Assembly: GCF_017348835.2 (NCBI RefSeq)
Contig: NZ_CP071375.1
Direction: 5' to 3' (one strand)
DNA: 64,000 nt
DNA from: Escherichia coli
Lineage (GTDB): Bacteria > Pseudomonadota > Gammaproteobacteria > Enterobacterales > Enterobacteriaceae
Numbering within the stretch: position 1 is the stretch's first letter; every line of letters begins with the position of its first letter. The position numbers are program-made. This document shows, in pieces, positions 1 to 3,000 of this stretch.

Positions 1-3000
1 CATGGTTTGCGGTAGCTTCAGCAACTTAGTCTGGAAATGATCCAGCGCGTAGCGTTTATCATCAAGCGGGCGATGCTGTGCGAACGGATCTTCACCATCA
101 AACAGCGCCACGCCCAATGCCCCTGAAACGGCAAACACGCGCGCCAGGCCAATCGCCCCCAGGGCTTCCAGCCGATCCGCATCCTGGACGATTTTAGCTT
201 CCGTTGTTAAGGGGGCGATTTGCGCGCTGAAACTGTGAGCGGCAATGGCATGACAAACGGCCTCAATTTTCTCCGCCGGAAATTGCACGAACTCTTCACG
301 GAGCAGGCGACGCGTCTCTTCTGCCGCCAGGATTGAAGAACGCTGCCGTTGCGGATGATTTTTCGCCAGGCTCACAATATCGTGGAAATAACAGGCGGTT
401 AAAATCACCAGCATATCGACGTCATCATCTGCCGCCAGCTTCTGTGCCGTAGCCCAGACGCGGCGAAAATGACACAAGTCATGGGCCGCGTCCTGGTGCT
501 GATGATGGTTTTTCAACCAGTTTTCGAACTGTGCCTGCCAGTGTTGTAAGTCCATACGCGCTCCGTTGCCAAAGAGTCGCCACCTTAGCAGTTTTTATTC
601 ATAGCGTCTGCTACGTGCGGGACGAGGTCGGGTGTACCAGGCAATGCTGCCTAACAATGCCCCGACCAGAGCCATAAATAAAAATCCGACCAGTGCCCCT
701 AACCACTTTCCCGCGGTAGAGCCTAAATCGCTTTCAAATCCCGACACGGGGGCATCGGGGATCCGGCTCATCACCCAGATGTAACGCGCCATTGCCCAGA
801 CGAAATAGCCACACCATGTATAGAAAGCCCACAAAGCCAGTTTGCCGCCAGGGCTGCGAGAGAGTCTCTCTTCCATCTTTGTCGAACCGTATTCCATTTT
901 GAGATAACCCGGAAAATTCAGACTTAGTACTATTATGTGATAAAAGTCACATTTTTCCACATTGAATGAGCCAGTCAAGACTCAATCATTTTTTGAACAA
1001 ATAGATAAATTTTGCGCAACGGCAGTGAATACAGGAAAAATCGTTTTGAGCGATTTTATTTATCTTTGATATCGGCTTTATTAATTCATTCAATCAATAT
1101 ATTAGCACTGATTACAATTATACCTTTTTATTATTCTGTGTCATGATGCTTCCGTTATTAGCCTTTTATCGTCTTGTTTATATTTTTTGGGCCGGCATGA
1201 TGCCGGCTTTTTTTTATGCCTTCATTAATGTGCGCGTGATCACACCAGCCGTTTAGCGCAACAATCATTGATACCCCCTATCTTTCCGCTCAACTCATAA
1301 CATATTGATATGCATTTATAATTTTCATGAATATTTATATTTAGAATTCATAATTCTGAATTATATTAAATAGATTGGAAACATTTTGAAATCTTTTAAA
1401 TATATTTGTTACATGTAATCTTTAAAATAAAATGAACTTCATAGAATAGTATCCAAATGTGCTTTTTTTTTGGATAACGGCACTTATTGATATATTCATG
1501 AAGATTATAATCACAAGGGAATACATAATGAAAAGAAAAGTTCTGGCAATGCTGGTCCCGGCGTTATTAGTTGCTGGCGCAGCAAATGCGGCTGAAGTCT
1601 ATAATAAAGATGGTAATAAACTGGATTTCTACGGAAAAGTAGCAGGTCTGCACTACTTCTCTGACAACTCGGGCGCTGATGGCGATATGTCATATGCCCG
1701 TATCGGTTTCAAAGGCGAAACACAAATCGCTGACCAGTTCACTGGTTACGGTCAGTGGGAATACAACCTGCAAGCAAATGGCACAGAAGGCGATGGAGAT
1801 AACTCTGCTACCCGTCTGGCATTCGCAGGTTTAGGTTTTGGTCAGAATGGTACTTTCGATTATGGTCGTAACTACGGTGTCGTATATGACATCGAAGCAT
1901 GGACCGATATGCTGCCAGAATTTGGTGGCGATACCTACGCGGGTGCCGACAACTTCATGAACGGTCGTACCAACGGTGTTGCAACCTACCGTAACAATGG
2001 CTTCTTTGGTCAGGTTGATGGCTTGAACTTTGCTTTGCAATATCAGGGTAATAATGAAAGTGGTGGACCATTCGGGCAGGAAGGTTCCGGTAGTGGTGAT
2101 GGCCGTAGCCTTTCCAAGGAAAATGGTGATGGTTTCGGTATGTCAACATCCTACGACTTCGACTTCGGTTTAAGTCTGGGTGCTGCATATTCAAACTCTG
2201 ATCGTTCAGATCGTCAGGTTGGAGTTGGTTTAAATGATCGTAACCATAGCAACAGAAATGCTGGTGGTGAAACCGCTGAAGCATGGACTGTTGGTGCAAA
2301 ATATGATGCTAATAATGTGTATTTAGCAGCTATGTACGCTGAAACTCGCAATATGACCCCATATGGTGGTGGCGAGTTTGATAATGGTGAATCAAGATCA
2401 GCCATCGCTAACAAAACCCAAAACTTTGAAGTTGTTGCTCAGTATCAGTTCGACTTTGGCCTGCGCCCGTCCATCGCTTACCTGCAATCTAAAGGTAAGG
2501 ATTTAGGCGGTTGGGCTCATGACGGTAATGGCGATCCGCATTACACCAACAAAGATCTGGTTAAATATGTTGATATTGGTATGACCTACTACTTCAACAA
2601 AAACATGTCCACCTACGTTGATTACAAAATCAACCTGCTGGACAACGACGACGACTTCTACAAAGAAAACGGCATCGCTACCGATGATATCGTAGCTGTG
2701 GGCTTAGTCTACCAGTTCTAATCAGCCAACGCGCCGCGGCGTGTTACTGTAAAACTTAACAATAGCCTGAGTTCGTCCCTCATCGAACTCAGGCTTTTTT
2801 TATTGGCATTTCATCTCCATCTCCGGCACACGCAATTGTCAATGCATATCGATACAGCACCTTACCCTGCCCCTGCTGGCACAATATCTTCTACCAGCTA
2901 CTCTTCCAGCCAACACTCCAAATACATTTCTTTATGAATTAATCCGCAACAAACACGCTTCCCATATAGAAATATTTGCAAAAATAGTGCATGAAATATG

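Follow-up and report, generated by a model that had tools for sequence, protein, structure and literature searches.

The porin gene and its neighbors

The window is the whole 64,000-nt stretch of the Escherichia coli contig NZ_CP071375.1 (assembly GCF_017348835.2) that was analyzed here. On its plus strand, an open reading frame runs from the ATG at 1528 to the TAA at 2719–2721 (1528..2721; 1194 nt, 397 codons), with no internal stop codon. The chance of an open frame this long is (61/64)^397, or approximately 5e-9. The sequence AAGGGA, an SD-like site, is located at 1515–1520 on the same strand, 7 nt before the ATG. The ORF listing also offers an upstream start, GTG at 1459, which would extend the product to 420 aa. 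ATG 1528 is preferred because RefSeq starts the gene there and because the SD-like site and the signal peptide fit it.

The first 21 aa (1528..1590, plus strand) are a signal peptide with an AxA-type site, cleaved after ANA and before AEVYNK. Pairwise alignment shows that residues 9–33, which span the cleavage site, are the same as those of K-12 OmpC. This signal peptide is invariant in 14 of the 14 other alleles examined. The mature porin of 376 aa, with the stop codon, occupies 1591..2721 on the plus strand and ends in VGLVYQF; the C-terminal Phe of the β-signal for BAM assembly is present. The protein matches the complete Pfam model PF00267 (Porin_1; 478.6 bits against a cutoff of 23.7, model positions 1–337 of 337). 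Its best NCBIfam match is NF007841, the OmpC subfamily, also over the complete model (542.8 bits, where the curated cutoff is 484; positions 1–368 of 368). In RefSeq, the identical sequence of E. coli F2_81 is an ordinary CDS (WP_053884514.1, "porin OmpC") without a pseudogene tag. The segment 1528..2721 is confirmed as an intact yedS coding sequence of the OmpC/OmpF family, in the OmpC/OmpK37 class. The sequence-only reading had described a frame of 397 codons with a signal peptide and a C-terminal Phe here, and both the ORF translation and the family models bear this out.

The region has 100% identity to that of F2_81, which was isolated from a pig in Australia (NZ_CP043542.1). The gene order in F2_81 is dcm-yedJ-drpB(yedR)-[porin]-hchA-hprS-hprR-hiuH-msrPQ, and that of MG1655 around yedS (b4496) is the same. 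The porin gene lies between drpB/rseX and hchA, on the strand shared with rseX and hchA. This corresponds to the position of yedS. The sRNA gene rseX is at 1125..1214 on the plus strand (Rfam RF01401, 97.7 bits with a gathering threshold of 50, model positions 1–94 of 94). It is directly upstream of yedS in the same orientation, and the MG1655 annotation places rseX at the equivalent position. This adjacency is attributed to Douchin 2006 by a source that cites it.

Three flanking elements on the plus strand deserve description. The terminator scan places the terminator hairpin of rseX at 1189–1209, with a T-run. The intergenic region with the promoter and 5'-UTR of yedS extends over 1215..1527; it is AT-rich, and in the composition profile its GC content falls to 21% at 1276–1500. 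It is approximately 97% identical to the K-12 sequence, including a difference in a T-run (T9 versus T8) near 1463–1471. Promoter-like hexamers at 1340–1367 and 1406–1433 are no commoner than in shuffled sequence. Downstream, the same scan finds an intrinsic-terminator-like hairpin and T-run at 2764..2802, with a 12-bp stem containing 7 GC pairs. This hairpin starts 43 nt past the yedS stop codon and is conserved in K-12.

Distinction from ompC and other known porins

The RefSeq name (ompC, porin OmpC) and the best NCBIfam match would both agree with a simpler explanation, in which the gene is plain ompC and there is no separate extra porin. NF007841, however, is a "subfamily" model and not an equivalog. 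The neighbors of the gene are rseX/drpB and hchA, whereas ompC of K-12 adjoins micF and rcsD. The amino acid identity to K-12 OmpC is only 68%, and that to OmpF is 64%. Moreover, the porin sequence finds a median of 3 matching places per genome, which indicates that the true ompC is elsewhere. That the gene is ompC itself is therefore highly improbable, and the RefSeq label, taken as the true ompC (b2215), is rejected on synteny and identity. The label is misleading where resistance is called from porin loss.

Compared with K-12 OmpC (b2215), YedS has three insertions of ~9 residues each, and its gene is at another locus with no adjacent micF. The core of the signal peptide, the PEFGGD motif, the basic ladder, the acidic residues, and the C-terminal YQF are common to YedS, OmpC (b2215), and OmpF (b0929). 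Unlike these two proteins, YedS is presumably not a major porin.

The closest solved structure is OmpK37 of Klebsiella pneumoniae (6v78), aligned end to end with an E-value of 8.6e-146 (query 21–397 against chain positions 3–356 of 356). OmpK36 and OmpC rank after it. OmpK37 belongs to another species and another locus. YedS has extra segments of approximately 9, 9, and 7 residues relative to OmpK37 (query residues ~231–239, 283–291, and 328–335). These segments are probably external loops, judging from the alignment, and they also vary between E. coli alleles. By homology, YedS would be a 16-stranded trimeric barrel, as suggested by the end-to-end alignment to solved trimeric porins (E-value 1e-146). 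The AlphaFold2 model built from a shallow alignment of 20 sequences has a mean pLDDT of 47.4 and a pTM of 0.50, values too low to check the barrel.

The loop-3 constriction motif PEFGGD corresponds to precursor residues 130–135 and nucleotides 1915..1932 (plus strand), as located by alignments to OmpC and OmpF. In pairwise alignments to the same two proteins, six of six constriction residues are conserved: K16, R37, R75, R126, D106, and E110 in mature numbering. We take their counterparts to be K16/R37/R74/R124/D105/E109 in OmpC and K16/R42/R82/R132/D113/E117 in OmpF.

Comparison with yedS of K-12

In MG1655 (NC_000913.3), yedS (b4496) is annotated as a pseudogene of 1193 bp. The window and K-12 sequences are 94.6% identical over 1401 bp, and within the CDS the sole gap is a 1-bp deletion in K-12. 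Two lesions distinguish the K-12 gene. The first is C484T at codon 162 (2011..2013 of the window, plus strand), where the CAG for Gln in the window is the amber codon TAG in K-12. The second is delT663 at codon 221 (2189..2190, plus strand), where the window has TT and K-12 lacks one T, which shifts the frame. These lesions break K-12 yedS into ORFs of 171, 69, and 134 aa. The pieces correspond to the historical fragments yedS_1/2/3 (b1964–b1966). The sequence-only reading had described K-12 yedS as a fragmented pseudogene, and the pseudogene annotation, the amber codon 162, and the −1 frameshift at codon 221 agree with that description. It had also considered that K-12 yedS could prove equally intact; the amber codon at 2011 and the 1-bp deletion at 2190 in the alignment exclude this case.

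Strain W12-1, a bovine isolate from China, carries an intact allele of the K-12 type. It differs from K-12 only by C484T and delT663. Since W12-1 differs nowhere else, two point events account in full for the inactivation in K-12, which is recent.

The window allele and the K-12 allele share their flanks (drpB-rseX-yedS-hchA-hprSR), and their central 515 bp are almost identical. The 5' part (~1628–1975) and the 3' part (~2526–2700) are less similar, with roughly 88–90% identity. These two parts show that the window carries an allele distinct from that of K-12 and mosaic in structure.

Intact and disrupted alleles

The annotated locus was inspected in 17 genomes taken from different levels of the similarity ranking; they represent a sample and not a census. 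yedS is intact in 12 of them: F2_81, W12-1, PCP06022, MRSN346638, KK19-02, AR_0061, ECC-1470, EC-16-35, an ST131 strain, 1506, GCM39, and Seattle 1946. The remaining five are disrupted by four independent types of lesions. Besides the amber codon 162 and the 1-bp deletion at codon 221 of K-12, these are the loss of 1 bp near CDS position 606, as judged against the most similar intact allele, which is the same in two O157:H7 strains; a 1-bp deletion at position 343 with 3' truncation and an adjoining IS30 in O104:H4 2011C-3493; and a 3' truncation adjoining IS3 and group II intron remnants in CREC-629.

Protein clusters of E. coli and Shigella contain hundreds of homologues of 395–397 aa, one of them seen on 1000 contigs or more. 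Alleles of exactly 1194 bp that are 98.7–99.0% identical to that of the window occur in at least 24 other complete genomes. The identity bands of the similarity search are not used here as allele frequencies because short partial matches, confined to the signal-peptide region, inflate the high-identity bands. Wild E. coli usually have the gene intact, and it is K-12 that deviates. This reverses part of the sequence-only reading, by which the strain "keeps" an extra functional porin. The intact coding capacity stands; the framing as something kept does not, given that intactness is the common wild state (12/17).

The deletions in K-12, O157:H7, and O104:H4 are each of 1 bp, the type that sequencing errors mimic or mask. 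The intact frame could then be spurious, an artefact of assembly or consensus calling behind which a homopolymer frameshift is concealed. The independent complete genome of F2_81 is identical to the window over this sequence, and the 1194-bp alleles in at least 24 more complete genomes repeat the same length. An artefact is thus hardly credible.

Selection on the coding sequence

The dN/dS values of the window allele against the other diverged intact alleles are 0.10–0.28, which indicates that the coding sequence of YedS is under purifying selection. Against the near-identical allele of PCP06022, dN/dS is 0.62, although this value is derived from only 16 changes. The sequence-only reading had named hidden lesions as a possible weakness of its claim. 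None were found: the HMM and PDB alignments are full-length, the constriction residues are conserved, and the selection is purifying.

These values bear on another explanation, in which the ORF is intact but the gene is decaying or dead, being permanently silent or disabled by missense changes, with a stop codon or frameshift yet to come. The locus has been lost repeatedly in E. coli, with four types of lesion of independent origin among the sampled genomes, and this suggests dispensability. The strongly AT-rich upstream sequence, which is probably silenced, and the higher ratio against PCP06022 would also be expected of such a gene. On the other hand, dN/dS stays low in every comparison with a diverged intact allele, even where dS reaches ~2, which speaks for a long-maintained coding sequence. 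The constriction and folding-signal residues are all conserved, and the HMM score exceeds the curated cutoff. The promoter region and the signal peptide are conserved even across alleles that are otherwise only 51–54% identical. A dead or decaying gene is therefore unlikely, if less so than the two explanations treated above. "Functional" as applied to the maintained yedS gene would refer to coding capacity only, as read from the sequence.

Allelic diversity between rseX and hchA

In the drpB-rseX-[porin]-hchA slot, the signal peptide is the same in all alleles examined and the flanks hardly differ. Their mature proteins are 352–404 aa long. They show 51–97% identity to the window allele, with dS from 0.2 to ~2. 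Two classes can be recognized. Alleles of the OmpC/OmpK37 class, with 387–404 aa, are present in the window, K-12, and ECC-1470. Alleles of the OmpF/OmpK35 class, with 352–371 aa, are present in ST131, ATCC 25922, and strain 1506. The two classes share only 51–54% amino acid identity, with dS above 1.

The sequence of loop 3 is VEWGGDSW in the alleles of ST131, strain 1506, and Seattle 1946. The best solved match of the ST131 allele is OmpK35 (E-value 2.5e-146). For the alleles of ST131 and strain 1506, the OmpF model is the best in NCBIfam, yet they score below every curated cutoff.

Sliding identity reveals mosaicism in blocks. The window allele resembles PCP06022 in the 5' two-thirds, W12-1 and K-12 in the middle, and KK19-02 and MRSN346638 at the 3' end. 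It can be tentatively speculated, at rather less than even odds, that the slot is a hypervariable, recombining "porin cassette" under long-term diversifying or balancing selection by phage, colicins, or immunity, with at least four independent inactivations, and that the window allele is one recombinant of it. The presence of two porin classes in one slot, together with the repeated loss, is a more interesting lead than the intact yedS.

Every element of the finding on intact yedS had been documented before. The K-12 pseudogene is part of the reference annotation, intact yedS elsewhere is represented by RefSeq CDSs and by Warner 2013, and the adjacency to rseX has been described. Intact yedS in the window is a correct but ordinary comparative annotation, which carries little weight alone.

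Probable silencing and possible role of YedS

In K-12, repression by H-NS, with StpA as a backup, extends over rseX "and surrounding areas" (PMC8313858). yedS has been equated with ompS1 (PMC2731931). OmpS1 of Salmonella is a quiescent porin that H-NS/StpA keep silent and on which LeuO lifts the repression (PMC4264507). OmpR is a further activator of OmpS1. OmpS1 and YedS both belong to the OmpC family; in laboratory culture OmpS1 is expressed little or not at all, and the same is probable for YedS. OmpS2 of Salmonella, OmpK37 of K. pneumoniae, and OmpN of E. coli are other quiescent porins. An AT-rich sequence upstream of yedS and the H-NS repression in the rseX area would fit the logic of OmpS1. 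The GC content of 21% upstream and the published H-NS silencing nearby suggest that yedS is a normally silent spare, an OmpS1-like porin.

Papers that cite the work on clinical E. coli by Warner et al. (2013, Antimicrob Agents Chemother 57:1935) refer to yedS as an active porin gene connected with carbapenem susceptibility (PMC4048246, PMC11267920). As far as these citing papers convey, the clinical strain is, like the source of the window, a non-K-12 strain whose yedS is intact and translatable.

Regarding when YedS is expressed, whether it acts as a channel, and what its role in the cell is, we infer the following. In ordinary growth, transcription of yedS would probably be silenced by H-NS/StpA, by analogy with OmpS1. 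Once made, the protein would be exported in a Sec-dependent manner and its signal peptide would be cleaved after ANA, as in its homologues. The C-terminal Phe signal would then direct BAM-mediated insertion in the outer membrane, again by homology. The barrel would form a water-filled general-diffusion pore, in which loop 3 (PEFGGD, D106, E110) would narrow the passage and face the basic ladder K16/R37/R75/R126. YedS may be relevant only upon de-repression or upon the loss of both OmpC and OmpF, the situation reported, in the citing papers, for a carbapenem-resistant clinical isolate. If de-repressed, it could alter the permeability to β-lactams and carbapenems; with OmpC and OmpF lost in addition, it could serve as a receptor for phages or colicins.

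Taken as a whole, the reading preferred here is that the window contains an intact yedS, encoding a general porin, in the drpB-rseX-[yedS]-hchA slot, that the gene was recently inactivated in K-12, and that it is probably silenced by H-NS. The probability of this reading is roughly 84%.

Control of YedS by MicF is said to have been described by Warner and colleagues in 2013. Pairing between the 5' seed of MicF (nt 1–33) and the translation initiation region of yedS (−35..+25) was calculated by RNAduplex at −7.7 kcal/mol, and 701 of 1000 shuffles were as good. The positive control for MicF, ompF, gave −27.1 kcal/mol, and none of 1000 shuffles was as good. With a strong control and a yedS value no better than shuffles, direct pairing of MicF at this region of yedS is unsupported. 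RseX, either full-length or trimmed, gave no signal of pairing with yedS; the known target ompC was also non-significant, and this test is powerless. Folding of full-length sRNA–mRNA duplexes is uninformative, as it yields long spurious duplexes.

The window beyond the yedS region

The window and F2_81 are collinear only over 1–14408, with 99.965% identity. From ~14.4 to ~61.3 kb, the window contains a full lambdoid prophage adjoining tRNA-Ser/mtfA, of which F2_81 has a remnant only. At one end, this prophage carries the T3SS effector genes nleF, nleH, nleC, and nleB2.

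Two porin classes in the yedS slot

The intact yedS gene of the window (1528–2721) was compared with the corresponding loci of other E. coli (L003–L015 and L020). Porins of two different subfamilies occupy the same yedS slot, depending on the lineage. One is an OmpC/OmpK37-like class of 387–404 aa, seen in the window as well as in K-12 and ECC-1470. The other is an OmpF/OmpK35-like class of 352–371 aa with the loop 3 sequence VEWGGDSW, seen in ST131, strain 1506, and ATCC 25922/Seattle 1946. The two classes share 51–54% amino acid identity with dS >1. Despite the differing porin subfamily, the signal peptide is identical and the flanks of the slot are near-identical.

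The yedS allele of the window is itself a block mosaic. Its 5′ two-thirds show ~100% identity with PCP06022 (L004), and the central ~515 bp are 100% identical to the K-12/W12-1 allele. For the last ~50 codons, the nearest alleles are those of KK19-02/MRSN346638. This arrangement of sequence blocks indicates intragenic recombination in the window yedS.

Losses of yedS and neighboring genes

yedS was knocked out independently of K-12 in O157:H7, O104:H4, and CREC-629. In the two O157:H7 strains (L007 and L014), there is a 1-bp deletion near the CDS position 606. O104:H4 (L012) combines the loss of 1 bp at position 343 with a 3′ truncation, and IS30 lies next to the gene. In CREC-629 (L021), yedS is truncated at the 3′-end and adjoins IS3 and group II intron remnants.

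Genes on either side of yedS are also disrupted in some strains. drpB, which adjoins the O157:H7 yedS, is frameshifted too. hchA, which encodes glyoxalase III and adjoins yedS, carries a pseudogene annotation in some strains whose yedS is intact: it contains an internal stop in PCP06022 and is frameshifted in AR_0061 (L008).

Upstream region and start codon of yedS

The sRNA gene rseX (1125–1214, + strand; Rfam, 97.7 bits) lies directly 5′ of yedS on the same strand. As reported previously, rseX is silenced by H-NS in K-12 (PMC8313858). A crude duplex test of RseX–yedS pairing was without power, and the known target ompC was not significant in it either. The T-run at 1463–1471, ~60 nt upstream of the yedS start codon, is T9 in the window, while it is T8 in K-12.

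A second, in-frame ATG is seen at 1498, upstream of the yedS start (segment 1498–1527). Because of this upstream ATG, some yedS entries in the database are 10 residues longer; 395-aa alleles are present as 405-aa versions, such as the protein entry P0023, "outer membrane protein yedS [E. coli B185]". The longer entries are probably mis-called starts.

Prophage and T3SS effector genes

A full lambdoid prophage is present at ~14,400–61,300, adjoining tRNA-Ser (61932–62018) and mtfA. Its genes include those for the integrase (60851–61876), tail fibre, Lom, and terminase. Three phage tRNAs (46627–46873), DicF (57423), the sok antitoxin RNA (50169), STnc100 (45681), and an IS3 with the ALIL pseudoknot (42277–43587) are also found. 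In contrast to this full prophage, only a remnant is seen at this site in F2_81, the closest complete genome; the window thus derives from a strain that is related to F2_81 but distinct from it.

Four T3SS effector genes, nleF, nleH, nleC, and nleB2, are clustered at ~11,700–15,400, at the prophage end nearer to yodB. This cluster implies an attaching-and-effacing (EPEC/STEC-like) background. In the F2_81 copies, nleH is frameshifted and nleC is truncated.
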